Virus record (IMG/VR): IMGVR_UViG_2684622582_000004
Source: a virus
Taxonomy: Duplodnaviria > Heunggongvirae > Uroviricota > Caudoviricetes
Strand: one strand, 5' to 3'
DNA: 35,256 nucleotides
A model generated the notes under the pieces. That model searched no databases and had not been told where the DNA came from. It worked only from the letters and a program-made list of their open reading frames with translations. The translations under genes were made by a program, and so were the position numbers. Positions 1 to 31,368 of the stretch are shown one piece after another. Every line of letters begins with the position of its first letter. The first letter of the stretch is position 1.

Positions 1-1215
1 TTATTTTTCAACCTCTGACAGGGGTAAGTAATGAGATGTCTGTAATGTCAAACTCTCTATCTCAAAGGAAATGTTGCTGATATTTTGACCTGCAAATTGC
101 GGATGCCACTCAGCGCCAAGGAATAACATTTCCGCAGAAGTAGCAACTATAGGGTCAATAGCATTAAGATAATGTAACTTATCAGGTGCGCTGTGTAACA
201 GTAACCACTGCAACTCCACTGAAGGATTTGTAAAATGTTCTAATAAATGAAAGTTATTATGTAGTACGCTTAGTAAAAAACTGGTTTCGTATACTTCCGT
301 TACATATTTCCACCCCTGATATTCAGGTGTATTTTCATAAACAATACCCATACCTTCACAATCACTATGTCGAACTGCTTGTGGTGATAATAGTTGCAAA
401 AGAGACAAAACATCGTCCGCATATTTTTTAACTGGATGACGATTTTGCTTACCTTTTATTTGATCAATTTCAAGTGAATCACCAACAACATTGAGAGCAA
501 TAGTAACATGAGGAATATTATTATTATCACGCAAACTGAATAACCGTAATTTATGTTGCTCAATTTGATTTGCATAATACTCACCATAACCACCGGTAAG
601 ATTTTTTCGATCATCAAACTGGCCTACGCAATGTTGCATATGCCATGATTCATAAGCCATTTCACGACGAAGGTTCGAATGACTGGCATCAAACTCAACA
701 ATTTTTCCGTCTGGCACATCAAGTATTGACTTTACAGTATTTTGTTCACTCGGCTGCCACCCTTTCTCGCGTCGTTGAAGCATCTTTTCATGCTCTTCTT
801 CACGCATTCTGAACGCAACGTAGCAGGTTATGCGCTGTAGTTTTGATTCCAGACGGGTACCACATTTCCTGGAAAGAAATTCCACCAACTCCCGTTCTTT
901 GGTTAATATTTGTTGATGATCGGTTTCGATATAATAAAGTGTCGCAGTTGATACTGAGGCAGTATTAAACTTCGATACCAGCCATTCCGGGATTACATCA
1001 TCATTTTTATTAAACAGTGAATATTCTGCAAGCGAGTTAATTTGTTGCACCATTGGAAAGTCACTAATTAGCCATCGATAAAAATGGTTGAGTAACCATT
1101 TTTGGATGGTCTCATTATCCTGGCGAAACAGACTTCTTTGCAAAATTGCTGTTTTTACTTCCGGGGCATTAATTACATCCCTTGCATTATAATTCTGGTG
1201 AATATTTCCAGTCAT
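1..1215 (-). CDS. hypothetical protein, 404 aa, AT-rich accessory gene of unknown function
   Basis: ATG at 1215-1213, TAA at 3-1. A hand-counted 60-nt sample (1-60) is ~35% GC versus >50% in neighbouring yegQ. No family recognised by eye. The gene ends at the window edge so upstream partners are unseen. Confidence 0.55.
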   Translation of the reverse strand: MTGNIHQNYNARDVINAPEVKTAILQRSLFRQDNETIQKWLLNHFYRWLISDFPMVQQINSLAEYSLFNKNDDVIPEWLVSKFNTASVSTATLYYIETDHQQILTKERELVEFLSRKCGTRLESKLQRITCYVAFRMREEEHEKMLQRREKGWQPSEQNTVKSILDVPDGKIVEFDASHSNLRREMAYESWHMQHCVGQFDDRKNLTGGYGEYYANQIEQHKLRLFSLRDNNNIPHVTIALNVVGDSLEIDQIKGKQNRHPVKKYADDVLSLLQLLSPQAVRHSDCEGMGIVYENTPEYQGWKYVTEVYETSFLLSVLHNNFHLLEHFTNPSVELQWLLLHSAPDKLHYLNAIDPIVATSAEMLFLGAEWHPQFAGQNISNISFEIESLTLQTSHYLPLSEVEK

Positions 1216-1702: not shown

Positions 1703-3064
1703 ATGTTTAAACCGGAACTCCTTTCCCCGGCGGGAACGCTGAAAAATATGCGTTACGCTTTCGCTTATGGCGCAGATGCTGTTTATGCGGGCCAGCCGCG
1801 TTACTCCCTGCGTGTACGCAACAACGAATTCAACCACGAAAATCTTCAGCTCGGCATCAATGAAGCCCACGCGCTGGGGAAAAAGTTTTATGTCGTGGTC
1901 AACATTGCACCGCACAACGCCAAGCTGAAAACCTTTATCCGTGACCTGAAACCGGTGGTGGAAATGGGGCCGGATGCGCTGATTATGTCCGATCCAGGGC
2001 TGATTATGCTGGTGCGTGAGCACTTCCCGGAAATGCCAATCCACCTCTCGGTACAGGCTAACGCCGTAAACTGGGCGACGGTGAAATTCTGGCAGCAAAT
2101 GGGTCTGACCCGCGTGATCCTCTCTCGCGAACTGTCACTGGAAGAGATTGAAGAGATCCGCAATCAGGTGCCGGATATGGAGATCGAAATCTTCGTTCAC
2201 GGCGCGCTGTGCATGGCCTACTCCGGTCGCTGCCTGCTCTCTGGCTATATCAACAAGCGCGACCCGAACCAGGGCACCTGCACCAACGCCTGCCGCTGGG
2301 AGTATAACGTCCAGGAAGGGAAAGAAGATGACGTCGGCAACATCGTACACAAGTACGAGCCGATTCCGGTGCAAAATGTTGAGCCGACGCTGGGTATCGG
2401 CGCGCCAACCGACAAAGTGTTTATGATCGAAGAAGCCCAGCGTCCGGGCGAGTATATGACCGCGTTTGAAGATGAGCACGGCACTTACATCATGAACTCG
2501 AAAGATCTGCGCGCCATCGCCCATGTTGAACGCCTGACCAAAATGGGCGTGCATTCGCTGAAAATCGAAGGCCGTACCAAATCTTTCTACTATTGCGCAC
2601 GCACCGCGCAGGTTTACCGTAAAGCTATCGATGACGCCGCTGCGGGCAAACCGTTCGATACCAGCCTGCTGGAAACTCTGGAAGGTCTGGCGCATCGTGG
2701 CTATACCGAAGGTTTCCTGCGTCGTCATACCCACGACGATTATCAGAACTACGAATACGGTTATTCGGTTTCTGACCGTCAGCAGTTTGTTGGTGAGTTT
2801 ACCGGTGAGCGCAAGGGGGAGCTCGCGGCGGTAGCGGTGAAAAATAAATTCTCCGTTGGCGACAGCCTTGAGCTGATGACGCCGCAAGGCAACATTAACT
2901 TTACCCTTGAGCACATGGAAAACGCCAAAGGTGAAGCAATGCCGGTCGCACCAGGCGATGGTTATACTGTGTGGCTCCCGGTGCCGCAGGATCTTGAGCT
3001 AAATTACGCGCTGCTGATGCGTAATTTCTCCGGGGAAACCACGCGTAACCCCCACGGTAAGTGA
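1703..3064 (+). CDS. yegQ: peptidase U32 family protein YegQ (tRNA-modification TrhP-like)
   Basis: 453-aa ORF with ATG at 1703. The sequence (MFKPELLSPAGTLKNMRYAFAYGADAVYAGQPRYSLRVRN...) matches my recollection of E. coli YegQ. Synteny yegQ-cyaR-ogr is as in E. coli K-12. Confidence 0.87.
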   Translation: MFKPELLSPAGTLKNMRYAFAYGADAVYAGQPRYSLRVRNNEFNHENLQLGINEAHALGKKFYVVVNIAPHNAKLKTFIRDLKPVVEMGPDALIMSDPGLIMLVREHFPEMPIHLSVQANAVNWATVKFWQQMGLTRVILSRELSLEEIEEIRNQVPDMEIEIFVHGALCMAYSGRCLLSGYINKRDPNQGTCTNACRWEYNVQEGKEDDVGNIVHKYEPIPVQNVEPTLGIGAPTDKVFMIEEAQRPGEYMTAFEDEHGTYIMNSKDLRAIAHVERLTKMGVHSLKIEGRTKSFYYCARTAQVYRKAIDDAAAGKPFDTSLLETLEGLAHRGYTEGFLRRHTHDDYQNYEYGYSVSDRQQFVGEFTGERKGELAAVAVKNKFSVGDSLELMTPQGNINFTLEHMENAKGEAMPVAPGDGYTVWLPVPQDLELNYALLMRNFSGETTRNPHGK

Positions 3065-3148
3065 TTAATTTCGATTATTTTTCCCGGATGGAAAATTCTT
3101 AGAAACCGATCACATACAGCTGCATTTATTAAGGTTATCATCCGTTTC

Positions 3149-3235
3149 GCTGAAAAACATAACCCATAAAATGCTAGCTGTACCAGGAACCACCTCCTTA
3201 GCCTGTGTAATCGCCCTTACACGGGCTTATTTTTT
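3149..3235 (+). ncRNA. cyaR: CyaR (RyeE) Hfq-dependent small RNA
   Basis: Sequence GCTGAAAAACATAACCCATAAAATGCTAGCTGTACCAGGAACCACCTCCTTAGCCTGTGTAATCGCCCTTACACGGGCTTATTTTTT matches remembered E. coli cyaR. It ends in a terminator hairpin (stem 3201-3210 / 3217-3226) plus a U-run. It lies between yegQ and an ogr homolog as in K-12. Confidence 0.8.
3209..3235. repeat. prophage att core copy at the ogr end (AATCGCCCTTACACGGGCTTATTTTTT)
   Basis: 27-bp segment repeated at 34755-34781 with a single mismatch (G at 3213 versus T at 34759). It matches my recollection of the 27-bp P2 attP core (AATCTCCCTTACACGGGCTTATTTTTT). Confidence 0.8.
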
Positions 3236-3336: not shown

Positions 3337-3555
3337 TTACATCCACATAATTTGCTGCCCTGACGGCAACGGGTGCGGTCTTACGGCGTGGACTTCTCCC
3401 GGCTTCACGATGTATCGCTGTACCGACTCATAAGTGATGAACGTGGCGCTGCAATTCACGTTCTGACACTGGTGATAACGCTCTTTTGTCGTGTCAGTGA
3501 TATAGCGGCTTGTACGCGCATGTGCGGCATGCTGGCATAAAGGACAATGAAACAT
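3337..3555 (-). CDS. ogr: Ogr late-gene transcriptional activator (C4 zinc finger), 72 aa
   Basis: MFHCPLCQHAAHARTSRYITDTTKERYHQCQNVNCSATF... with a C-x2-C...C-x4-C zinc finger. ATG at 3555 (the ORF-track start at 3618 is TTG). Length matches P2 Ogr. Confidence 0.9.
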   Translation of the reverse strand: MFHCPLCQHAAHARTSRYITDTTKERYHQCQNVNCSATFITYESVQRYIVKPGEVHAVRPHPLPSGQQIMWM

Positions 3556-3636
3556 CGCGAGCACCTCTTCCGGTTTTGTTGATGGTGCCATTTTAGTTAA
3601 TTTATCCTTATAAAACAAACAGATAAAATAAAAACA

Positions 3637-8749: not shown

Positions 8750-9940
8750 TTAATTGCTGTTAACCGAGGTAACCAGACTTGCCAGGTATCTGGAAGTAAT
8801 ACGCTGGCGCAGGGTCAGGTTTTCGAGAGGAGGCACCGGGGTATAGTCGTAGTCGATATACAGTTTTCCGGCCTTGAGGGTTTCCGCATCATTGGCTTCT
8901 TCACTGAACCAGCATGTGCCATCCACGATATAACCGTTGTTTTTCAGTTCGCGGAATTTGGCATTAATGCCATCAATGATGTCACGAATCAGCGTTGCGG
9001 TAATTGGCTTATCAATAGCCCACATGTGCGCCTCGGCCATCGTGTCGGCCAGTACCTGCGCGGTGCGGGTGTAGCTTTCAAAGAGGAACAGCGGGTCATC
9101 AGAGCAGGTACGGTTACCCCAGAAGCGGAAGCCGTCGCGGCGAATCAGCGTAGTGATGCCTGACTCGTTAAGCAGGTCAGCATCAGTGCCGGACTTCTGC
9201 AAATCCCAGAATACAGAGGCGCTGATGCCGGTAACACCATTTACCCCGACGTTGGACAGCGTTTTATGCCAGCCCTGCTCCTGGTCGATTTTGGCACGCA
9301 GCCCCAGCGCACGGGCGGTGGCATACGCGGTGGCAGTGGTACTGGTAACCGTATCCCATGCGAGGAAATCCGGCCAGATGACCATCAGCTCACGCTGGCT
9401 GAAATTCTGACGGTAGGCTTTTGCCTCGGAAATGGTTTTACAGCCCCATGCGCTGATATACCCGAATGCATTCAGTTCCTGGCATACCGATGCCAGTGCG
9501 ACGGCAACCTCTTTGGTGTCCAGCCCCGGCACACCAAGAATGCGCGGTTTAACGCCGGTAACCGACTCAGCCCCCATCAGGGCTTTCAGTCCGGTGTACT
9601 GACCGTTTTCGTCAGTGGTGCCGATGATATTGGAAACGGTCTGCGCGAGTTTCGTTTCCTCGTCGTCGCCGGTGCTGTCTTCCACACGCACGACAACGGT
9701 GACCGGTTTTGACTGGTCGGCGATAGCCTGCAACGATGCCGCCAGCGTGCCTTTTTTACCGGCCTTTGCAATCGCGCTCTGCACATTGGTAATCAGCACC
9801 GGTTTATTGAGGGGAAAGGTTTCCGCATCCGCATCGCTGGCCGTGCAGACCATGCCGACAATGGCAGTGGATACGGTGGAAATGACGCGGGTGCCGTCGT
9901 TAATCTCCAGCACCTGCACGCCGTGATGATAGTCACTCAT
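8750..9940 (-). CDS. FI: tail sheath protein (P2 gpFI-like), 396 aa
   Basis: Synteny and P2-matching length; ATG at 9940. Confidence 0.88.
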   Translation of the reverse strand: MSDYHHGVQVLEINDGTRVISTVSTAIVGMVCTASDADAETFPLNKPVLITNVQSAIAKAGKKGTLAASLQAIADQSKPVTVVVRVEDSTGDDEETKLAQTVSNIIGTTDENGQYTGLKALMGAESVTGVKPRILGVPGLDTKEVAVALASVCQELNAFGYISAWGCKTISEAKAYRQNFSQRELMVIWPDFLAWDTVTSTTATAYATARALGLRAKIDQEQGWHKTLSNVGVNGVTGISASVFWDLQKSGTDADLLNESGITTLIRRDGFRFWGNRTCSDDPLFLFESYTRTAQVLADTMAEAHMWAIDKPITATLIRDIIDGINAKFRELKNNGYIVDGTCWFSEEANDAETLKAGKLYIDYDYTPVPPLENLTLRQRITSRYLASLVTSVNSN

Positions 9941-10319: not shown

Positions 10320-11162
10320 TTATTGACAATCATCAATTCTGGAATGATCAAAATCATCATATCGAATTATAGTCTGGTTGACTGTATCTATTGTTGGTGT
10401 CATTTCTGTTATAATATCCTGATAACCTAAAGAGTTAAATACATTTACTAAGGCCTCACACCGAAGGGCCGTAGCAATTACAAAATTATAAATTGCCAGC
10501 CGTTTATTTTCTTGTTTAACTGCAAGAATGAATTCGATAGCAGTAGTTTCATCACTTTGGATTGCATTATATAGAGATACTATATTTACCATATCATCAG
10601 AGAATGTATGTATTGAATCACAAAGGGGAACGTAATGGGCATGATAGTGTGTTTCCCAGCCAATTAATTCAAAAAGTTTTCTGGTTCCTGGATATTCAGG
10701 TGTATTTGGCCACAATCTATTAAATAGATCAGTTAGTTCTTTTCCCATGCGAATCCTTTCATTTGCTGCTGGATTAGTCATTCCTTTGGATTTTAAACAC
10801 TCCAGCCACCGTTTTCCATTACTATGAACTAATTTCTTACTAGCCTTGAGTAATGCTTGTGCATTTTCGCCATCATCTATTGCTATATAAAATTGATTGG
10901 CAGCCTGTTCTATTATAACCCTAGCTAATACTTCCGATGCTGAAAAGGCTCCTATATTCAAAGAAGAGATAGCCTGATTACTAAGTTCATTCAGTACATT
11001 AAAGTACTGTAAGACCATCAATTTTTGTTCCACACCCTTTAGGTTGTCTATTTTATTTTTATGCTCCTCAAATTTTGCATGGATATATTTATTTATCGCG
11101 GCTATTTTTTTTACATCTTCGTCAAGATCAAACGGGCAACGTCCAAACAATTCTTTTTTCAT
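10320..11162 (-). CDS. hypothetical protein, 280 aa, AT-rich cargo gene in the P2 Z/fun moron slot (function unknown)
   Basis: ATG at 11162 with AGGAGA SD 7 nt upstream and a TATAAT -10 at 11206-11201 (minus strand). Hand-counted sample lines are ~28-42% GC versus ~55% in flanking tail genes. No family motif recognised. Confidence 0.7.
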   Translation of the reverse strand: MKKELFGRCPFDLDEDVKKIAAINKYIHAKFEEHKNKIDNLKGVEQKLMVLQYFNVLNELSNQAISSLNIGAFSASEVLARVIIEQAANQFYIAIDDGENAQALLKASKKLVHSNGKRWLECLKSKGMTNPAANERIRMGKELTDLFNRLWPNTPEYPGTRKLFELIGWETHYHAHYVPLCDSIHTFSDDMVNIVSLYNAIQSDETTAIEFILAVKQENKRLAIYNFVIATALRCEALVNVFNSLGYQDIITEMTPTIDTVNQTIIRYDDFDHSRIDDCQ

Positions 11163-11583: not shown

Positions 11584-12111
11584 TTATTGCGGCATTTCCG
11601 GCCATTCAGGATTTGCAGGATCCACACGGCTGACCAGAACACTGTAGCGTTCCCATGCTTCCAGTCGGCTACGCTCCTCATCTGTTGCCATATTCAGTCT
11701 GACAGAGCGTTCCAGTGGCTGAATGATAGTTTCAGCTTCGGAAAGCAAAGCTGACTTCTGTAATTCCGCCAGTTGCAGCTGTTCGTCTGCCGTATAAATC
11801 CGCTTAATCACAGCACCATCCTTAAACATCCATTTACCTGAGTCATCAGCACGTCGGTTGGCGGTAATATCAGGAACCTCGACAACGCTAAAACCTTCAG
11901 GGTTAAGCGTTGAAGCATCTCTGGTGATGCCGACAATTATATTATTCTCGTCGTAAACAATCTTTATCGTGTCTTCCTGAAAATTACTTACTTCCTCATA
12001 CCAGTTTTTTCCCTCTTCGGACCATAACCAGATAACATCAAAATTTTTTGTCAGTTGATATTGGGCAACAGTTTTTGGATTACCCGCAGTAATATTTTTT
12101 AAATGCTGCAT
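11584..12111 (-). CDS. G: tail fiber assembly chaperone (P2 gpG-like), 175 aa
   Basis: Immediately downstream of the tail fiber gene; P2 gpG length. Confidence 0.85.
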
Positions 12112-12114
12112 AAA

Positions 12115-14856
12115 TTACACCTGTGCAACGTTATACCATGTGCCATTGATGTATTTTTGTATTGGTCTGAATACTGCGGGGTCATCACCATCGACTTCAC
12201 CGACAATACCAAGCCCTGTAATTACGTGCCCTGCTTTCTCATACATCACCCCTTTCTGCATGGTCTGAACAACACGAGTGCCAAGTCTGACATCTCTCAC
12301 ATAGCGGGAATCAAAGTTACCGTAATCCGAAGGATTAACACGCCCCGTAATATTTATGGTTTTATTACTTTGAATGCTTCCGGAGACAAAGCGCATAACA
12401 TGGACGCTATTAGCATAAACATCCAGATTACCATCACCATTTTGTTTAAAGCCCGTGTCATTATCACCCAAAACAATCGAATTACCGCCAAGAGCACTGG
12501 ATGTTCCGATGCCCAGTGCACCATTCAATTGACCACCAGATAACGACAGTGCACCGACATCTCCCGCTGTAGGTTTTCGCGTTGTGGTATAAAACTCAGA
12601 CCAGTCAGCCTCGAATCCGTAACCATCACGAGCAGAACGATAAAAAATACCGCCGTTCTTATAATTAACGCGGAACTGGGCTGCGGGACAACTTCCTTCA
12701 CCGATATTAAAATGAAGAATTAACGTTGATGCCCCACCAGTAGTTGCGTTATAGGCTCCGCTACTCCAGTTCCATCCAACGGCTTTATCATTCGCAACGG
12801 TGTCTCCTGTTTTTCCTGAAGCAAATGCACCAATATTTTTCGGCGTCAGGTTAATATCTGATGTTCCATCAAACGAAACGTTATTAATTTTACGGGCTGT
12901 TTTCAGCTTTGTTGCTGTCGCCGCATTGCCGGACAGTTCACCAGAGAGGCCTGCACTGAATGTCTGTTTTGCCTCCCATGTCTGGGCTTCGTCGATAATT
13001 GGTAGCCGACGAATATTGAAGCTACGCTCCCCAGGATTGCCATATAAGCGGACTGTAAAAAAACGATAGTTGGTTTTGTTTGAGGTGCTGCGCCATACCT
13101 GCATTGAACGGGCGACACCTCCACCTTCACTGGGGCCAACAGTGATATTTATCAGGTTAGTATCAATGACGCCCCATTCCATCCCATCGGGGATATTGGT
13201 CATATCGGAGAGTCTGACAGTTATCATGCTGCCCGGCACAAAGTCGTAGGTCTGCCAGTCCAGACTGGATAACCTGTCGGTAACACCGCCGACACCTAAT
13301 TTAGTGAGTAATGATTTTGAGTTGTAAACTTCCGCCCATTCCCCCCAGTCAGCTTCACCGCTGGCACGAGTTCGTTGAAATGTCCGGTTTTTATAGGCAT
13401 CCGTTGCAGAAACTGTCGTATATGTCTGGATATACGATTCAATATCACAACGTTTTTTCACTTCAACTATTGAGCCAACAGCAAGATCTTTAGAGTCGGT
13501 GACTGGTGCGTTTGTGGCCTGTTTCGTGACGCTATAAATACCAGGCTTTAAAAGGTCATCAAGATCCCCTGAATAAGTCCATCCCGTGGACTGATACCCA
13601 ACAGCAATCCAGTCCTCCCATTGTGGATTCTCTGCATCCCATGAGGCAGTCAGTCCGCGAATGTACATAGTCCCACTACGGGTGGTGTAACGTTGCATTC
13701 TCCCATACAGACCGCCTTCAAAGACTTCCAGAATACCCTGACCAAAGCTCCCGTCCTCCGGGAAATGACGTTCAAATGAGGCTATTGATGTACTGCTATT
13801 GCGCCATATTCCCAGGTGTTCCGCGCCACCTAAAGAATTCAGGTCAATTGACGTGCTTAATGGTCGAGTCCCGCTTGTAATAACTCTCCATGCACTCCAT
13901 GTTGGACTGGCTGGGTTCCATTCTGCATCAAGCATCCGAATGTAAATATTACCGGTTCGGGTGGTGTAGCGTTGTGTGCAGTGAAAGCGACCAGCATTGA
14001 ATACTTCCAGAACCCCATTGCCTTTATCTTCAGGGTAACCAGACTCTGGTTTTGCAGTGGATTGTGACGGACATGACCACGTTCCAAGATATTTTTCTTC
14101 TGGGCCATAGGAGTCAAGATTGTCAGTGGTTGGAATCATTCCATTGTGTTTCATAAACGTCAGGCTGGTAACGCCAATATTGTCCAGAAAAGCTGATTTA
14201 TCCTGGATATCTGCACCGTTCTGATTTTTCGCCAGACGTGAATTTGCGTTGTCATTTGCTGCCTTGACCGCTTTTGGCGTTGCCGCCAGCTTTTCACTGG
14301 TGCTGTTTGTTGCACTGCTTAACTGAGTAAAACCTTTTTCTGTCAGCGTGGCGTCAGGATGGCGGCGGGACTGCTCATGCTCTGCGATTTTGTCATCGAC
14401 GTAATCCTGCGTCGCCATCACCGTGCTGGCATCAATACTCAGCTCAACGGACGCCACGTTGCTGAGAATAATAACCATGCGGCAGGTCTGCGCACGTCCG
14501 GAGCCTTCAGCCAGTTCTGGCTTATAGCTTTCTGCCATGTTGGATACCGCAATCAGTGTTCCGGCATCGTCATACAGACCAAGTTCACGCATCCAGAAGC
14601 CGCCCACTTCTGGCGGTACAACCAGTTCAGCCACGATATAGTTTTTATTCTTGTTATCCACGCTGACTTTATTCAGAGCGTGACGCCAGACCTCATGCAC
14701 CAGTTTCGTCTGACCGGCATCCGGCACCGGCAATTTGCCATTACCGTCACCCACGGCCATTGCAGACAGGTTTACTTTTTTCCCGCCGGGGACAGTGGCG
14801 GCTGCCAGCTTTGCGGCTCCGGCAGTAGTGATAACGGTTTTAAATTTCGTGCTCAT
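12115..14856 (-). CDS. H: tail fiber protein (P2 gpH-like, mosaic), 913 aa
   Basis: N-terminus (MSTKFKTVITTAGAAKLAAAT...) and C-terminus (...NFDSRYVRDVRLGTRVVQ...FRPIQKYINGTWYNVAQV) resemble P2 gpH as I recall it. The central region differs and contains an internal tandem domain repeat. Confidence 0.85.
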   Translation of the reverse strand: MSTKFKTVITTAGAAKLAAATVPGGKKVNLSAMAVGDGNGKLPVPDAGQTKLVHEVWRHALNKVSVDNKNKNYIVAELVVPPEVGGFWMRELGLYDDAGTLIAVSNMAESYKPELAEGSGRAQTCRMVIILSNVASVELSIDASTVMATQDYVDDKIAEHEQSRRHPDATLTEKGFTQLSSATNSTSEKLAATPKAVKAANDNANSRLAKNQNGADIQDKSAFLDNIGVTSLTFMKHNGMIPTTDNLDSYGPEEKYLGTWSCPSQSTAKPESGYPEDKGNGVLEVFNAGRFHCTQRYTTRTGNIYIRMLDAEWNPASPTWSAWRVITSGTRPLSTSIDLNSLGGAEHLGIWRNSSTSIASFERHFPEDGSFGQGILEVFEGGLYGRMQRYTTRSGTMYIRGLTASWDAENPQWEDWIAVGYQSTGWTYSGDLDDLLKPGIYSVTKQATNAPVTDSKDLAVGSIVEVKKRCDIESYIQTYTTVSATDAYKNRTFQRTRASGEADWGEWAEVYNSKSLLTKLGVGGVTDRLSSLDWQTYDFVPGSMITVRLSDMTNIPDGMEWGVIDTNLINITVGPSEGGGVARSMQVWRSTSNKTNYRFFTVRLYGNPGERSFNIRRLPIIDEAQTWEAKQTFSAGLSGELSGNAATATKLKTARKINNVSFDGTSDINLTPKNIGAFASGKTGDTVANDKAVGWNWSSGAYNATTGGASTLILHFNIGEGSCPAAQFRVNYKNGGIFYRSARDGYGFEADWSEFYTTTRKPTAGDVGALSLSGGQLNGALGIGTSSALGGNSIVLGDNDTGFKQNGDGNLDVYANSVHVMRFVSGSIQSNKTINITGRVNPSDYGNFDSRYVRDVRLGTRVVQTMQKGVMYEKAGHVITGLGIVGEVDGDDPAVFRPIQKYINGTWYNVAQV

Positions 14857-23722: not shown

Positions 23723-25495
23723 ATGACCATCACCACAGACACCACTCTTTTACACGACCCGCGTCGTCAGGCGGCGCTGCTGTACTGGCAGGGGTTTTCC
23801 GTGCCGCAGATTGCCGCCATGTTGCAGATGAAACGCCCGACGGTGCAGAGCTGGAAACAGCGCGACGGCTGGGACAGCGTTGCCCCCATCAGCCGTGTCG
23901 AAATGAGTCTGGAAGCGCGGCTGACCCAGCTCATCATCAAACCGCAGAAAACCGGCGGTGACTTCAAGGAAATTGACCTGCTCGGACGCCAGATTGAACG
24001 ACTGGCACGGGTAAACCGTTACAGTCAGACCGGCAACGAGGCAGACCTTAATCCGAACGTCGCTAACCGCAACAAAGGCGGGCGGCGCAAACCGAAAAAG
24101 AATTTTTTCAGTGACGAGGCCATCGAAAAGCTGGAGCAGATTTTCTTTGAGCAGTCTTTCGAATATCAGTTGCACTGGTATCGCGCCGGGCTTGAGCACC
24201 GCATCCGCGATATCCTGAAATCCCGCCAGATTGGCGCGACGTTTTATTTTTCCCGCGAGGCGCTGCTGCGCGCCCTGAAAACCGGCCATAACCAGATTTT
24301 TCTGTCGGCCAGTAAAACGCAGGCGTATGTGTTCCGTGAATACATCATCGCCTTTGCCCGGCTGGTTGACGTTGACCTGACCGGTGACCCGATTGTCCTG
24401 GGCAATAACGGCGCAAAACTGATTTTTCTCGGCACCAACTCCAACACCGCACAGAGCCATAACGGCGACCTGTACGTCGACGAGATTTTCTGGATCCCGA
24501 ATTTTCAGGTACTGCGTAAGGTGGCATCAGGTATGGCCTCACAGAGTCACCTGCGCTCGACCTATTTCTCCACCCCGTCCACGCTGGCGCACGACGCCTA
24601 CCCGTTCTGGTCGGGTGAACTGTTCAACCGGGGACGCGCCAGCGCCGCCGAACGCGTGGAAATCGACGTCAGTCATAACGCCCTTGCCGGTGGGCTTCTC
24701 TGTGCGGACGGCCAGTGGCGGCAGATTGTCACCATTGAGGACGCACTGAAAGGCGGCTGCACGCTGTTCGACATTGAGCAGCTCAAACGCGAAAACAGCG
24801 CCGACGATTTTAAAAACCTGTTCATGTGTGAATTTGTTGACGACAAGGCGTCGGTATTCCCGTTCGAGGAGCTGCAACGCTGCATGGTCGACACGCTGGA
24901 AGAATGGGAAGACTATGCGCCGTTTGCCGCCAATCCGTTCGGCTCCCGCCCGGTATGGATTGGTTACGACCCGTCACACCGTGGCGACAGCGCCGGATGC
25001 GTGGTGCTGGCACCGCCGGTGGTGGCCGGTGGCAAATTCAGAATACTTGAGCGTCACCAGTGGAAAGGCATGGACTTTGCCACCCAGGCGGAATCCATCC
25101 GCAAACTCACCGAAAAATACAACGTCGAATACATCGGTATTGATGCCACCGGCCTCGGTGTCGGCGTGTTCCAGCTCGTGCGCTCGTTCTATCCCGCCGC
25201 GCGCGATATCCGCTACACGCCGGAAATGAAAACCGCAATGGTGCTCAAGGCAAAAGACGTCATCCGCCGTGGCTGTCTGGAATATGACGTCAGCGCCACC
25301 GACATCACCAGCTCGTTTATGGCTATCCGCAAGACCATGACCAGCAGCGGACGCAGCGCCACTTATGAGGCCAGCCGCAGCGAGGAAGCCAGCCACGCCG
25401 ACCTCGCCTGGGCGACCATGCACGCCCTGTTAAATGAGCCACTCACCGCCGGTATCAGCACCCCGCTGACATCCACCATTCTGGAGTTTTACTGA
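23723..25495 (+). CDS. P: terminase large (ATPase) subunit (P2 gpP-like), 590 aa
   Basis: ATG at 23723 with GAGGT SD (the ORF-track start at 23693 is TTG); 590 aa as in P2. Its stop overlaps the Q start (TGATG). Confidence 0.9.
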   Translation: MTITTDTTLLHDPRRQAALLYWQGFSVPQIAAMLQMKRPTVQSWKQRDGWDSVAPISRVEMSLEARLTQLIIKPQKTGGDFKEIDLLGRQIERLARVNRYSQTGNEADLNPNVANRNKGGRRKPKKNFFSDEAIEKLEQIFFEQSFEYQLHWYRAGLEHRIRDILKSRQIGATFYFSREALLRALKTGHNQIFLSASKTQAYVFREYIIAFARLVDVDLTGDPIVLGNNGAKLIFLGTNSNTAQSHNGDLYVDEIFWIPNFQVLRKVASGMASQSHLRSTYFSTPSTLAHDAYPFWSGELFNRGRASAAERVEIDVSHNALAGGLLCADGQWRQIVTIEDALKGGCTLFDIEQLKRENSADDFKNLFMCEFVDDKASVFPFEELQRCMVDTLEEWEDYAPFAANPFGSRPVWIGYDPSHRGDSAGCVVLAPPVVAGGKFRILERHQWKGMDFATQAESIRKLTEKYNVEYIGIDATGLGVGVFQLVRSFYPAARDIRYTPEMKTAMVLKAKDVIRRGCLEYDVSATDITSSFMAIRKTMTSSGRSATYEASRSEEASHADLAWATMHALLNEPLTAGISTPLTSTILEFY

Positions 25496-26529
25496 TGAGC
25501 AAGAAAAAAGGGAAAACACTGCAACCTGCGGCAAAAAAAATGACCGCCAGCGCCCCGAAAATGGAGGCATTCACCTTTGGCGAACCGGTGCCGGTACTCG
25601 ACCGCCGTGACATTCTGGATTACGTCGAATGCATCAGTAACGGCAGATGGTATGAGCCACCGGTCAGCTTTACCGGTCTGGCAAAAAGTCTGCGTGCTGC
25701 CGTGCATCACAGCTCACCGATTTACGTCAAACGTAATATTCTGGCTTCAACGTTTATCCCGCACCCGTGGCTTTCCCAGCAGGATTTCAGCCGCTTTGTG
25801 CTGGATTTTCTGGTGTTCGGTAATGCGTTTCTGGAAAAGCGTTACAGCACCACCGGTAAGGTCATCAGACTGGAAACCTCACCGGCAAAATATACCCGCC
25901 GTGGCGTGGAGGAGGATGTTTACTGGTGGGTGCCGTCCTTCAACGAGCCGACAGCCTTCGCGCCCGGTTCCGTGTTTCACCTGCTGGAGCCCGATATTAA
26001 TCAGGAGCTGTACGGCCTGCCGGAATATCTCAGCGCCCTTAACTCTGCCTGGCTGAATGAGTCAGCCACGCTGTTCCGCCGCAAGTATTACGAAAACGGC
26101 GCACATGCCGGATACATCATGTACGTCACCGATGCCGTGCAGGACCGCAACGATATCGAAATGCTTCGCGAAAACATGGTGAAGTCGAAAGGCCGCAACA
26201 ACTTTAAAAACCTGTTTCTCTATGCCCCGCAGGGGAAAGCCGACGGCATTAAAATTATCCCGCTCAGTGAAGTGGCGACGAAGGACGATTTTTTTAATAT
26301 CAAAAAAGCCAGCGCCGCTGACCTGCTGGACGCGCACCGCATCCCCTTTCAGTTGATGGGCGGCAAGCCGGAGAACGTCGGGTCGCTGGGTGATATTGAG
26401 AAAGTGGCAAAGGTCTTTGTCCGCAATGAGCTTATCCCGCTACAGGACAGGATCCGCGAGATAAACGGCTGGCTCGGTCAGGAGGTCATCCGCTTTAAAA
26501 ACTACTCACTGGACACTGACAACGGCTGA
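25495..26529 (+). CDS. Q: portal protein (P2 gpQ-like), 344 aa
   Basis: Synteny and P2 length. Confidence 0.9.
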   Translation: MSKKKGKTLQPAAKKMTASAPKMEAFTFGEPVPVLDRRDILDYVECISNGRWYEPPVSFTGLAKSLRAAVHHSSPIYVKRNILASTFIPHPWLSQQDFSRFVLDFLVFGNAFLEKRYSTTGKVIRLETSPAKYTRRGVEEDVYWWVPSFNEPTAFAPGSVFHLLEPDINQELYGLPEYLSALNSAWLNESATLFRRKYYENGAHAGYIMYVTDAVQDRNDIEMLRENMVKSKGRNNFKNLFLYAPQGKADGIKIIPLSEVATKDDFFNIKKASAADLLDAHRIPFQLMGGKPENVGSLGDIEKVAKVFVRNELIPLQDRIREINGWLGQEVIRFKNYSLDTDNG

Positions 26530-26556: not shown

Positions 26557-26698
26557 ACAACCCGCCATCACGCCCTCACACGCTCACCACCGCACAAAAC
26601 ATCCCACAGACACACCAACGCCCCGGCGAACAATCTAAACGCCATCACGACGCGCTCAGGCGCTGAAAAAATAAAATCAGCACCACCGCCAGCGCGCA

Positions 26699-26717
26699 GT
26701 GCTTTCCCCGCCTCGCC
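26699..26717. other. cos site (19-nt cohesive end sequence of P2-type phages)
   Basis: GTGCTTTCCCCGCCTCGCC is the reverse complement of GGCGAGGCGGGGAAAGCAC, which I recall as the P2 cohesive end. It sits downstream of Q where cos is expected. Confidence 0.65.
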
Positions 26718-26868
26718 CGCCCGCTTCATGGGTCGGTTTGAATGCAGTTGAATTACAACTACCAAACCAAGCAATCCCTACTATTACGCAGAAAATGCAT
26801 ACTGAAATACCTCGTGCAAATTGATGCAGCTAAGTATGCATAGGTTTTATGCCTCAACGTATACGTTA

Positions 26869-28701
26869 TCAAACAGAGCCCTGTTCAAAAACAGTATCAA
26901 AATATGGTAGGAGAGGATAAGCACACAGAAAGAAAATCAGGATGCATGCATATGTCGTTGTTTCATCGTAACAAGCATCAGTATATAAATTACCATGTGC
27001 TAATTTATGTCTTAAGGTTGCCCCACTCTTTCTGTTAAAAAGAACATCGATAGTCAAAACAAGATTTTTAGAAAAGATACTTTCCAAATCATCTCTGCAT
27101 TTATCTAGAAGCTGAGAAATACTTGTTGACTCCTCTAATCCCTTATCCAAATATCTAGTAGCATCCTTTCCACTAAGCTCATAATAATAACGAACCATAC
27201 CTTCCATTTGTGGTATTAAAAGATAAGCTGCACTGATGTAATCTCCCTGCCATAATTTGTAAAAGCCCAAATTAAAAATCTCCCTAAACTCCGGCTTGAC
27301 AATTGGACTAGTTGTAACCAATTTAACGAATGTTGACAACGTCAAGCCATGTTCTTGAGAAAGTACATAGCGAGCAGGTTCAAAGACACCGTTTACAAAA
27401 ATCTTATGAGTAATCTCGAAATTTCTTAGATATTGATCAATAACAACATCATCACTCATATCTTTTTTATTATCCAACGGCGGGATTGTATATATCTTAC
27501 GCCCACTCTCATCATTAATTTCTGTTCCAACAAAACTAGAGAATAAACTTTTTTCTGATAATCTTAAAACTTGTTCCCTCATGCTTTCAATATTTTCAAT
27601 CGGTGTTTCACTCATTAAAACTTTGAATATATCGGGCAAAGAACGCCCCGTCAGTTTTTTTTCACTTTCAGCAACCAAGTCACTAATATCAATAGAATGG
27701 CTTAAAGTGACATATTCACTCCTTACTTCTTCTCTCAAATTAGCAAGTTGTTCCTTTAAATCTTCTATCTGTTGGCTATCACCACCGTACTGTCTTAATT
27801 CAGAGATAGCTGTTCTTAACCAAGAGATCTTACCCATATTATCAGGTCGTTCTGTTGCAACTTTAATAGTAATATTTGCAGATGCCAGTTTACATCTCTT
27901 GGCACGTTCATACTCACCATTTTTTTCATAAATAACTGCACTTGTCATATAAAGTGATTTTACAGCATCATAATATTTTTTATCTTTATGCTGCTCAGCC
28001 ATCTTCTCAGCATTTTCCGCATACTGCAGATTATACCCATCAAAATCACGCACCATAAACCAAGTCAAATTATTGAAACCTTCAAAGATTAATCTTTCAT
28101 TTTGAATACTATAAAGAGAATGAATGGCATTTTTAATCGCCATGTTTCCTTCTGATTTTCTAGGGTAGACCATTTTATTAATGTGCAAAGCCCTAGCAAT
28201 ATAATCACGAGCAAAAATAAAGCAATTTAAATCACTTTCATCCATGCTTTCGTTTTTTATTATTAGCTTTTCAATTGCTATATTTAGCATTTCAGCATAG
28301 GAATCAATTGCTTTAATTGCCACGTCTTTATTTTTCCGATTATTACACCAAACAACATCATATATTCTTGATAACAAAAATGGATTGGTTATTTTTTGAG
28401 AAACATATAAAAGACAGTCATTCACCTGCTCATCAAAATCTTCAGGCAATATTGATCTTTTATTACCCCAAATCATTTGGGGTTCAAATGATGGAGTGTT
28501 GTTAACAACTTGCAAATTGAAACTATATAGCATACCAAAAAGAGATGCTAATTTTTTCTCTTTGGGGTTTTCTGATGACTCAGCAATCCCATCCAGATAT
28601 TTTTTTATTTTATGTGCATGAAATGTAACTGGTATATACATAAAAACACTATAATCTAGTGTTTCAAGCTCTTCCCTTGTAAGAACAAAGATATCATTCA
28701 T
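26869..28701 (-). CDS. hypothetical protein, ~610 aa, AT-rich cargo gene in the P2 old/tin moron slot (function unknown)
   Basis: ATG at 28701 preceded by AAGGTG SD (the ORF-track start at 28806 is TTG). A hand-counted sample (27001-27060) is ~33% GC. No Walker A, so not Old-like. C-terminal ...TLRHKLAHGNLY contains an R-x4-H pattern. Confidence 0.7.
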   Translation of the reverse strand: MNDIFVLTREELETLDYSVFMYIPVTFHAHKIKKYLDGIAESSENPKEKKLASLFGMLYSFNLQVVNNTPSFEPQMIWGNKRSILPEDFDEQVNDCLLYVSQKITNPFLLSRIYDVVWCNNRKNKDVAIKAIDSYAEMLNIAIEKLIIKNESMDESDLNCFIFARDYIARALHINKMVYPRKSEGNMAIKNAIHSLYSIQNERLIFEGFNNLTWFMVRDFDGYNLQYAENAEKMAEQHKDKKYYDAVKSLYMTSAVIYEKNGEYERAKRCKLASANITIKVATERPDNMGKISWLRTAISELRQYGGDSQQIEDLKEQLANLREEVRSEYVTLSHSIDISDLVAESEKKLTGRSLPDIFKVLMSETPIENIESMREQVLRLSEKSLFSSFVGTEINDESGRKIYTIPPLDNKKDMSDDVVIDQYLRNFEITHKIFVNGVFEPARYVLSQEHGLTLSTFVKLVTTSPIVKPEFREIFNLGFYKLWQGDYISAAYLLIPQMEGMVRYYYELSGKDATRYLDKGLEESTSISQLLDKCRDDLESIFSKNLVLTIDVLFNRKSGATLRHKLAHGNLYTDACYDETTTYACILIFFLCAYPLLPYFDTVFEQGSV

Positions 28702-28820
28702 CGTTTTCACCTTTTTCAGTATAAATTTGCACGCATTATTATTAGCAACATAATCATCAATAGTTAACACATGCAGATAGACAGCAATTTTACTATTATG
28801 CAACAAATTAAATCAGATGT

Positions 28821-31103
28821 TTATTGCTCTGAATAACAATAAAACCAACTCCACTCATCAGCGACCGGATACGTAAATTTTTTCCCGTTGTAATTTACGG
28901 TCGCTCCACGCGCCAGCGCCTCCATCTCCCATCGCTGCGGCCTGATACCGTTCTGAGCAAGGTCAACGCGGATACGGATAATTTGCATTCGTTCCGACCG
29001 GGTCAGTCTGGCCGATGGCGCTATTTCATGCGGTTTTAGCGGGCTTCCGTTTCTTTGCTGACGATTTAGCGTTCTCAGCCCGTGTTTTAATGCGCCCCTG
29101 AGCGCCTTCACGACCTCCGGGTCATTCCATTCGATAACACCGTCATTAACCAGATTAAGCACTGCTGCGGCGTGCTCAGAAGGTGTGGGAGCCGGTAACG
29201 AAGTATCACCACCAGTGAGCTTTCCACAGTTATTGACAGGACTCCGAGGCGCGGCGATGCCGCTTTTTAAAGTCAAAGGCTCAACGACCGGAACTTTCGG
29301 CACAATGCGCCAGTCCGTCGTTCTGGTGATATGAATATGACGCGCGCCGAGATGCGGCGCGTAAATGCCGACCACTCTCTCGACTTCTTCCTCGTACTCG
29401 TTAACTTCATCCGACGGGCTACGGGCGACTCTGACAGTCTGACAATCGCGCGGGACATTTGCCCCACCCTGCGCGCTGATATACAACGCAAAATCACCAC
29501 TGTCTGCGGCGGCGCGTGCAGCCTCGACGCGCTCGTCAAACTCATCAGCAATGCTGACGCCGCGCGGCAATTTGCGTAGTTCACGGTAAGCCCCCATTGT
29601 CGGCAGGCCAACCGTTTTAAATTGCGGGATGCGCCACGTTGACGCCCATGCGGTAACAGCCGCTGCAGTGTCTTTCAGCGGCCTGCCGGTGTCGTTATCG
29701 AGCTGACCATCCAGTGCATAGCCGTCGATGTTTTTTGAAATGTATTTCGCGATATATCCCGCAGCACCGCCCCGGTTAAGGTGTTTTGCCTGAAAACGGT
29801 TTCGCGCGGCTCCTCTTTCGTCGCCATCCTCTTTGAGCGCATAGCGACGCATGATTTCGATAATCTGGTTACGCTGGCGTGAATTACAAAAAAGCATCAT
29901 ATGCCAGTGCGGCGTTCCGTCGTGGTGTGGCTCGACGACACGCAAACCGTAGACCTGTAAATCATTATCCTTGAATGCCGTGCGCATCAGGCTCCAGATA
30001 CGGCAGAGATAACGCTGCGCATCCTTTGGATTAAATGCCTCATCGTTCCAGCCGTGATTAAGCTGCACGGTTTTACTTTCGCCTTTTCCTACCTGACGTG
30101 TCGGGTGATACTTTGACGGCGCGGTCAGCGTGATAAACATCCCCACATCACCCTCTGCAGCGGCGTAACGCTCAATACCGGCAATGGTGTTCATCAGCTC
30201 CATCCGGCGAATTTCAGGATTAGAAATACTGCCCATCACCTTACTGATAAGGTCGATGCGCTCGCCGGTTTCCCTGTTTTCAAGGTCACACGATTTAAGA
30301 AATTCCAGATTTGCCTGGCGGCGCGCACGCACATCACGAATGGCGTGTTTACTGGCATAAGGAGAACGGTCTTTATTGACCTCCCCGACAGCTATCAGTA
30401 ACGCTTCATGCCAGCGCATACGCTGGCCTTTAAGCTGATGAGTCCACCACTCATCGTTAAACAGACGGGCAATGGCAGAATATGCCTGCCTCGTGGTCAT
30501 CTGTCCTTTACGGTATTTTTTCCAGTAGAGCGGGGAAATATTGAAAGCACGTGCAGCGCCAGCAACATGACCATACAGGTGAGCCTGCGCCTCATCCGTA
30601 AACAGCGATTCTTTTTCACCATGCGCATCAACCCATGCATCGCAGAGTTCCTCATACATCATGAAAAGCTGCGATGAGATACGGGCGGCAAACTTTTTCA
30701 GCTCCTTGTCATTCATTCCCGGCAGGCGCGCATAGTGGTCACGCTCTGCCAGAAACAGCAACGACGCGTCGGTGTTCATTTCATGGCGCTGATTCACACG
30801 CTCAATGCGCGGCCATAAACGACGCTGAAAAGTAGATGTGAGGAAATAAAACCCGTGCACCGGGCTTTTATTGCGCCGGATGTAGTCATAGCGTGAAGTA
30901 AACAGCGAGCGCAAAAAGTAAGGCAGGCGGTTAATCGTGGATAAAACACCTTGCACCTGACGCATCTCGTCACGTGTAAGAGGTCTTTCGCGCCCGACAG
31001 CCTCGCGTGGCGCGTTCCATGCATAAGCACCGGTAAACGCCTTACCGGTGCCTGCGGTAAATGCTGACGGAGGGACAAAACGCCCGGAGGCTTTAACGGC
31101 CAT
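28821..31103 (-). CDS. A: replication initiation endonuclease (P2 gpA-like), 760 aa
   Basis: ATG at 31103 (MAVKASGRFVPP...); the ORF-track start at 31145 is TTG. Size and position as P2 gpA. Confidence 0.87.
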   Translation of the reverse strand: MAVKASGRFVPPSAFTAGTGKAFTGAYAWNAPREAVGRERPLTRDEMRQVQGVLSTINRLPYFLRSLFTSRYDYIRRNKSPVHGFYFLTSTFQRRLWPRIERVNQRHEMNTDASLLFLAERDHYARLPGMNDKELKKFAARISSQLFMMYEELCDAWVDAHGEKESLFTDEAQAHLYGHVAGAARAFNISPLYWKKYRKGQMTTRQAYSAIARLFNDEWWTHQLKGQRMRWHEALLIAVGEVNKDRSPYASKHAIRDVRARRQANLEFLKSCDLENRETGERIDLISKVMGSISNPEIRRMELMNTIAGIERYAAAEGDVGMFITLTAPSKYHPTRQVGKGESKTVQLNHGWNDEAFNPKDAQRYLCRIWSLMRTAFKDNDLQVYGLRVVEPHHDGTPHWHMMLFCNSRQRNQIIEIMRRYALKEDGDERGAARNRFQAKHLNRGGAAGYIAKYISKNIDGYALDGQLDNDTGRPLKDTAAAVTAWASTWRIPQFKTVGLPTMGAYRELRKLPRGVSIADEFDERVEAARAAADSGDFALYISAQGGANVPRDCQTVRVARSPSDEVNEYEEEVERVVGIYAPHLGARHIHITRTTDWRIVPKVPVVEPLTLKSGIAAPRSPVNNCGKLTGGDTSLPAPTPSEHAAAVLNLVNDGVIEWNDPEVVKALRGALKHGLRTLNRQQRNGSPLKPHEIAPSARLTRSERMQIIRIRVDLAQNGIRPQRWEMEALARGATVNYNGKKFTYPVADEWSWFYCYSEQ

Positions 31104-31368
31104 ATGAGCCAAAAGCCTCTGAACAACGCTTGCTGAGTTGCTCAACCTGCGCGTTTAAATCAGCAAAAGATTTTGCGCTTCCGGTCAGAATATCGTGATG
31201 CATCAGGCCGGAAACGAGCTGGCCTAATTTCGGGTAATAACCAACCACCGCCAGCCATTCCTGACCGGCGTTTTTACCGCTTTCCGCTCTCTTTTTCTCG
31301 TGGAGAATAAACTGAAAGCTGTCACTGGTAACGACATAACGTTCGCCAATTTCAATACGAATACTCAT
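31093..31368 (-). CDS. small early protein (P2 orf83 position), 91 aa
   Basis: Synteny only. Confidence 0.6.
   Translation of the reverse strand: MSIRIEIGERYVVTSDSFQFILHEKKRAESGKNAGQEWLAVVGYYPKLGQLVSGLMHHDILTGSAKSFADLNAQVEQLSKRCSEAFGSYGR

Follow-up and report, generated by a model that had tools for sequence, protein, structure and literature searches.

A predicted HEPN protein of the DUF7380/DUF4209 family in the gpA/cos/gpQ hotspot of a P2-like prophage is an already catalogued candidate for anti-phage defence

The slot between the genes gpA and gpQ of P2-like prophages has been surveyed in E. coli genomes and bears retrons, DUF4238 and other validated defences, among them the AC1 system, which acts on close P2 relatives (Rousset et al., 2022, PMC9122126). 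The survey lists 'DUF4209' as system #13 (Table S5B) with 193 occurrences among 18,150 P2 hotspots, and a copy from E. coli S88, designated 'Putative HEPN' (Table S2B), was cloned with its native upstream sequence into a low-copy pSC101 vector, yielding plasmid pFR103, and placed in MG1655 (Rousset et al., 2022). Here we analyse the same gene in a stretch of 35,256 nucleotides of Caudoviricetes DNA (IMG/VR record IMGVR_UViG_2684622582_000004; hereafter the window), where it encodes a protein of 610 residues and lies, like the cloned copy, in the gpA-gpQ slot beside cos. The part of the pFR103 protein that was compared is identical to our protein at 395 of its first 399 residues, leaving four substitutions, and the upstream region is the same; the strain differs. 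A first-pass annotation of the window had called the gene unassigned and a prime candidate for an uncharacterised single-gene anti-phage function. The outcome for the window is a correction, as the gene is a catalogued, named and already tested candidate, not an unrecognised one, and no feature of the protein tells more than the R-x4-H motif near its C-terminus that had been dismissed.

Several resources had arrived at this family before. DUF4209 corresponds to the C6orf70/ERMARD family of the HEPN superfamily, which is predicted to be catalytically active, occurs in fusions with TPR repeats and is found in bacterial operons related to restriction-modification (Anantharaman et al., 2013, PMC3710099). 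PADLOC contains the family as PDC-S39, one of 145 untested candidates that were defined by their embedding in BREX, DISARM or type I restriction-modification (RM) loci (Payne et al., 2024, bioRxiv 10.1101/2024.01.29.577857), and a 2026 preprint on an O157:H7 strain treats PDC-S39 solely as a predicted system. DefensePredictor scored three E. coli entries named 'DUF4209 domain-containing protein' (595-617 residues) as defence genes, which can be set beside our protein by name only; DUF4209 is not in the DefensePredictor table of validated-system domains. The literature and annotation resources thus already contain the gene and its family, as well as its HEPN nature and its status as a candidate. 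Since the PDC-S39 assignment, the hotspot catalogue and DefensePredictor agree, the candidacy proposed by the first-pass annotation is plausible, although the gene had been catalogued before.

How does the protein compare with these families? The description as unassigned does not hold, as the protein is matched end to end by PHROG 5183, begins with a DUF7380 domain, in which R82, D88, R112, D115 and W118 are conserved among the relatives aligned below, continues with a helical-repeat region and ends with a match to DUF4209 (PF13910) at residues 524-590 (E 8.6e-4, 19.8 bits against a gathering score of 22.3). The scan of defence profiles that had been suggested in the first pass was carried out with PADLOC and returned PDC-S39 over nearly the full length: its two profiles match with E 2e-84 and 2e-83 and together span residues 26-598, the best match (E 2.3e-84) covering residues 40-598 of 610 and profile positions 44-583 of 595. 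Our gene is a stand-alone, full-length representative with no room for a partner gene between gene A and cos. PDC-S39 is likewise a single-gene family; our gene, however, comes from a prophage hotspot and not from one of the BREX, DISARM or type I RM loci out of which PDC families were drawn. A search of NCBIfam with the protein gave no match. An exhaustive profile search found at least 3,364 cluster representatives (clusters at 50% identity) at E<=0.001, 615 of them at E<=1e-30, and among the matches listed nearly all are full-length proteins of about 600-640 residues. A second, word-indexed protein search with the diverse alignment described next added nothing to the close relatives that had already been found. 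In a diverse alignment of 49 relatives that are 20-37% identical to our protein, DUF7380 is matched by all 49 and DUF4209 by 45 (E<=0.01, best 9.4e-13). With these counts and the mostly full-length relatives, the combination of DUF7380 and DUF4209 is, as far as profiles tell, a stable and widespread architecture. One of the 49 relatives has an additional match to Pfam DUF4238 (E 3.1e-6), the domain of a single-protein defence against T7 that was validated from the P2 hotspot, which hints at a distant kinship between DUF4238 and the DUF4209-type HEPN family.

HEPN proteins are characterised by an R-x4-6-H motif that ends helix 3 and whose arginine precedes a polar residue (N, D or H), by an acidic residue further upstream in helix 2, usually in the form E-x3-[KR], and by an up-down bundle of four helices in which an insert separates helices 2 and 3 (Anantharaman et al., 2013). 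All these hallmarks are found in our protein or its predicted structure. The arginine and the histidine of the motif R564-H-K-L-A-H569 are present in 49 of 49 relatives, the residue that follows the arginine is always polar (H in 39, N in 9 and S in 1), and upstream in E500-G-M-V-R504 the glutamate is again invariant and the arginine conserved in 48 of 49. Just seven columns of the whole alignment are invariant, namely G400, L495, P497, E500, R564, H569 and G570. In a single sequence such as ours about 0.46 matches to R-x4-H are expected by chance, and the first-pass annotation had set the motif aside on this ground; since it is invariant among relatives of such low identity, chance does not account for it, and by the alignment it is a defining feature of the family. 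The statement that the protein has no nuclease signature is likewise overturned by the HEPN R-x4-H motif, the E-x3-R hallmark and the HEPN-like predicted fold. Two other R-x4-6-H matches, at residues 426-432 and 444-451, were considered as a second HEPN motif and rejected because their positions are not conserved.

In the secondary structure of the model, EGMVR lies in a helix at residues 498-509 and RHKLAH in a helix at residues 560-568, which is followed by a loop and a further helix at residues 580-604; the predicted arrangement is that of the bundle described above, insert included, with the motif closing helix 3. A structure search had been proposed in the first pass. The best structural matches of the modelled C-terminal domain are solved HEPN structures, for example Csm6, AbiA and HEPN toxins, whereas Foldseek with the whole model against the PDB returned nothing at E<=0.001, only generic helical repeats; a sequence search of the PDB with the family profile also found nothing significant (best E 0.16). 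With the C6orf70/ERMARD family our protein shares a C-terminal DUF4209 match just under the gathering score, the pattern R-[HN]-x3-H, the E-x3-R hallmark and the fusion to TPR-like repeats. Eukaryotic ERMARD is predicted to be anchored in the membrane of the endoplasmic reticulum, but a comparable C-terminal transmembrane segment or tail anchor was rejected for our protein, whose hydropathy maximum over 19 residues is 1.78 with a family median of 1.45. Because of this low median, the arginine that many relatives carry in the hydrophobic C-terminal helix and the position of this helix, it is better read as helix 4 of the HEPN core. The HEPN fold and the catalytic motifs are well supported, and it is highly probable from the sequence that we are dealing with a HEPN protein that is predicted to be catalytically competent.

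We read the gene as cargo that a P2-like prophage acquired horizontally in its gpA/cos/gpQ hotspot. It lies between gene A and gene Q and adjoins cos, in a place where the flanks are constant and the content varies. The 19-mer GGCGAGGCGGGGAAAGCAC, which we take to be the cohesive end of P2, has an exact match at the downstream border of the slot, with 0 matches expected in shuffles. The flanks of the slot are 96-97% identical to those of more than 100 P2-like phages that bear other cargo, such as cdt toxins, Fic/VbhT, DUF4238, retron Ec48 and DUF3850. Among complete E. coli genomes, the flanks match in 2157 of 5426 and the whole 2.5-kb query in just 55. The sole phage record with the cargo gene is vB_EcoM-569R9 (protein identity 99.3%), where GenBank names it 'DUF4209 domain-containing protein'. 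The coordinates, the cos 19-mer and the flanks agree with the earlier placement of the gene in the old/tin slot of P2, between cos and gene A. The composition is also foreign to its surroundings: the GC content is 0.332 and that of third codon positions (GC3) 0.255, as compared to 0.532 (GC3 0.548) in gene A, 0.535 in gene Q and 0.567 at positions 7021-7080, which bears out the hand-counted estimates of about 33% and 57%, and a GC profile in 500-nucleotide steps shows the same trough over the cargo gene. An open reading frame (ORF) of 68 residues (26568..26774, minus strand) overlaps cos and appears to be the 198-nucleotide 'hypothetical protein' that the record of vB_EcoM-569R9 shows just 3' of its DUF4209 gene; in all likelihood this ORF, which runs across cos, was called spuriously.

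The closer relatives share this location. Homologues of 54% (Kosakonia), 53% (a metagenome), 31% (Enterobacter) and 28% identity all lie between a GPA-type replication gene and a portal gene of P2/186-like prophages, and ORF612 of P2-EC46 is a variant of 32.5% identity that also matches PDC-S39. The 90%-identity cluster of our protein comprises 810 member sequences, and across these and the 55 complete genomes the reading frame is intact and more than 99% conserved. More distant members stand alone in their loci, which in one case lie near Mu-like genes and in two cases beside ribosomal-protein operons. No recurring partner gene was found among the loci of relatives that were examined, which is consistent with a single-gene system. 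In Enterobacter sp. ECC-219 (locus L005, 7989..9836) a P2-like remnant in decay, whose gpA and terminase genes are truncated, nonetheless carries a homologue ORF of normal length (615 residues, 31% identity), so that the cargo seems to have survived the decay of the prophage; a DUF2971 gene follows and a GmrSD-like gene lies nearby. Of the two members beside translation operons, one (L008, 1196..3049) is directly upstream of rpsJ-L3-L4-L23-L2 and the other (L013, 7001..8809) about 1.4 kb from rpsL-S7-EF-G-EF-Tu-S10; with n=2, either coincidence or a hotspot of insertion may account for this.

The expression signals of the gene can be read in part from the window. The open frame listed for the minus strand (26869..28806) opens with TTG, and the resulting version of 645 residues was rejected, since neither the N-termini of homologues nor the RefSeq annotation support it. 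The N-termini of 20 homologues align at the ATG at 28701, which gives the length of about 610 residues stated in the first pass, and the identical RefSeq coding sequence of 1833 nucleotides is named 'DUF7380 domain-containing protein'. The Shine-Dalgarno sequence AAGGTG that the first-pass annotation had placed before this ATG was found 6 nucleotides upstream of it (Table 1). The spacer between gene A and the cargo gene measures 119 nucleotides with 29% GC, and a consensus scan of the spacer region gave 14 promoter-like matches versus 9.0 +/- 2.6 in shuffles, an enrichment that is not strong.

Table 1. Positions of the cargo gene, its predicted domains and motifs, candidate expression signals and the flanks of the hotspot in the window
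Feature	Position	Strand	Basis or remark
Coding sequence, DUF7380 / helical-repeat / DUF4209 (HEPN) protein	26869..28701	-	610 residues plus stop from ATG 28701
DUF7380 domain, N-terminal, residues 4-184	28150..28692	-	Pfam PF24098, E 1.9e-38, 132.5 bits (gathering score 27)
Central all-helical TPR/SNAP-like repeat region, about residues 200-385	27547..28104	-	boundaries approximate
C-terminal HEPN domain, about residues 470-604	26890..27294	-	overlaps DUF4209 match at residues 524-590
E500-G-M-V-R504, E-x3-[KR] hallmark	27190..27204	-	predicted HEPN helix 2
R564-H-K-L-A-H569, predicted HEPN R-x4-H catalytic motif	26995..27012	-	end of predicted helix 3 (translation, alignment, model)
Shine-Dalgarno sequence AAGGTG	28708..28713	-	6 nucleotides 5' of ATG, read directly from the sequence
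Sigma-70-like promoter candidate (TTAACT, 18 nucleotides, AATAAT)	28738..28767	-	consensus scan, 9 of 12 matches; putative function
Second promoter candidate	28795..28823	-	consensus scan only
Replication gene A, Phage_GPA-type, upstream flank of hotspot	28821..31145	-	ORF; 'replication endonuclease' in RefSeq genomes
P2-type cos cohesive-end 19-mer, downstream border of cargo slot	26699..26717	-	exact match
Portal gene Q, downstream flank of hotspot	25495..26529	+	ORF; annotated 'phage portal protein'

How could such a protein act? We lean slightly towards a sensor-coupled HEPN RNase that would serve as a lysogen-expressed effector of abortive infection or exclusion; the defence role is a prediction. 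It could be imagined that the lysogen transcribes the cargo gene from a promoter of its own in the AT-rich region in front of it and that the protein stays inactive until its DUF7380/helical-repeat part senses an infection cue, which would most likely be a protein of the invading phage or of another mobile element. Upon activation the HEPN domains of two molecules would pair and form a composite R-x4-H site; pairing of two chains is proposed because there is one HEPN domain per chain and HEPN enzymes generally pair. The composite site would cut RNA without a metal ion, leaving 2',3'-cyclic phosphate ends, translation would halt, and the infection would abort or the competitor be excluded. By analogy, a precedent may be seen in HEC-08 (DUF3644 HEPN and zinc ribbons) and DS-11 (CBS and HEPN), validated single-chain HEPN defences that, like our protein, combine a putative sensor or regulatory part and one HEPN domain in a single chain, although their HEPN families and partner domains differ from ours. 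Mutations of the HEPN catalytic residues (in HEC-08 the histidine of R-x4-6-H) abolish defence by both systems, a phenotype that belongs to them and not to our protein. Old and Tin of P2 are lysogen-expressed exclusion genes of the same slot, but Old is an ATPase with a TOPRIM domain (Rousset et al., 2022) and its chemistry differs. Kinship to Old or Tin was rejected, and our protein is no OLD-family nuclease: in agreement with the first pass, a pattern scan found no Walker A motif, and Pfam and PADLOC gave no ATPase or TOPRIM match and nothing beyond DUF7380, DUF4209 and PDC-S39.

Several observations weigh against a defence role. A reduced version of the plaque assay that the first-pass annotation had called for already exists, since the 99%-identical pFR103 was challenged with eight phages, lambda, T4, P1, 186cIts, CLB_P2, LF82_P8, AL505_P2 and T7, and it is entered solely under the 'additional tested systems', not with the validated systems of Table S2A (Rousset et al., 2022). 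Cargo unrelated to defence, for instance partition systems and cdt toxins, is found in the same hotspot as well (Rousset et al., 2022). PDC-S39 was expressly put forward as a candidate yet to be tested, the DUF4209 score of our own protein lies under the Pfam gathering score, and some distant relatives are solitary in ordinary chromosomal contexts. A literature search for DUF7380, PF24098, DUF4209/PF13910 and PDC-S39 found no functional study, and none was found in the literature that reports RNase activity, toxicity or a trigger for any family member. The panel on which the negative result rests did not include T2, T5 or heterologous P2-like phages other than 186. Its authors consider the defensive fraction probably underestimated, as the panel was small, and they describe one PARIS system that was silent from its native promoter and active once induced (Rousset et al., 2022). 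Because the panel is small and silence of the native promoter is possible, the negative result weakens the defence reading without excluding it.

The lack of validation could also be understood if the HEPN RNase served in conflicts between mobile elements and excluded P4-like satellites, rival P2-like prophages or plasmids, which plaque panels would miss. The tie of all closer relatives examined to the P2/186 gpA-portal slot would fit such a role, as would the ability of the AC1 system from the same hotspot to hit close P2 relatives, but the temperate phages lambda, P1 and 186cIts were already in the panel, more distant family members lie outside prophages and any target would be conjecture; we regard this explanation as unlikely. 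In other HEPN families catalysis has been lost, and still others are toxins of toxin-antitoxin modules or act in RNA processing (Anantharaman et al., 2013). Our gene might accordingly be a selfish toxin or addiction element, or it might regulate RNA of the host or the prophage, in either case with no anti-phage role, for example in lysogen stabilisation or host physiology, and the non-defence cargo of the hotspot and the place of the tested copy among the non-validated systems would be in line with this. However, gene A (119 nucleotides upstream) and cos (downstream) border the gene directly, leaving no adjacent antitoxin or MNT gene, and with 610 residues and extra domains in addition a HEPN-MNT module was rejected; family members occur within BREX, DISARM and RM loci, and MG1655 was evidently able to carry the clone on a plasmid. 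A function of this kind therefore seems rather improbable to us.

Finally, the HEPN-like domain could be non-catalytic, acting in binding or as a scaffold, or the gene could be decaying, non-functional cargo. The loss of catalysis in some HEPN families, the DUF4209 score under the threshold and the tested copy that was not validated could be taken in this sense, but R564, H569 and E500 are invariant and R504 is present in 48 of 49 relatives, among few conserved columns, the frame is intact and highly conserved in the 55 genomes and 810 cluster members, and even a decayed P2 remnant retains an intact homologue, which makes such an explanation very improbable. The sensor-coupled HEPN RNase thus remains the reading that we prefer, with the reserve expressed above.

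The window contains other features that lie apart from the hotspot. A second AT-rich cargo gene (10320..11162, minus strand, about 35-39% GC) encodes a DUF5677 protein of 280 residues (Pfam E 5e-10; no PADLOC match) and sits between the ORF 8750..9940, the tail sheath gene by position, and the tail-fibre-sized ORFs 11584..14856. By position this is the Z/fun slot of P2, described as a second P2 defence hotspot (Vassallo et al., 2022). Towards the left end, an AT-rich ORF (1..1215, minus strand, 34-40% GC) runs off the window; it is PcfJ-like (Pfam E 7.5e-6), lies upstream of a peptidase U32 gene and may be part of another mobile element. A full-length CyaR/RyeE small RNA (3147..3232, plus strand, Rfam 96.8 bits) lies between this peptidase U32 host gene (1703..3064) and the end of the prophage at the small ORF 3337..3618 (ogr by position). 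The site is presumably the yegQ-cyaR site, the home of the ogrK/yegZ P2 remnant in E. coli K-12.

Beyond the single gene, a wider proposal can be made, which we consider possible but doubtful: that the DUF7380/helical-repeat/HEPN family, with its at least 3,364 clusters, is a widespread single-protein immune sensor-effector whose trigger is absent from the eight tested phages, and that its HEPN module is the bacterial counterpart of that of human ERMARD. If this were true, the module would be another defence module common to bacteria and eukaryotes. Should our gene prove to be an active defence, a large family of thousands of clusters, to which three independent lines of prediction already point (hotspot cargo, embedding in BREX and RM loci, and machine learning), would gain a function, and the bacterial relatives of the HEPN protein ERMARD of humans would gain a model that is amenable to experiment.

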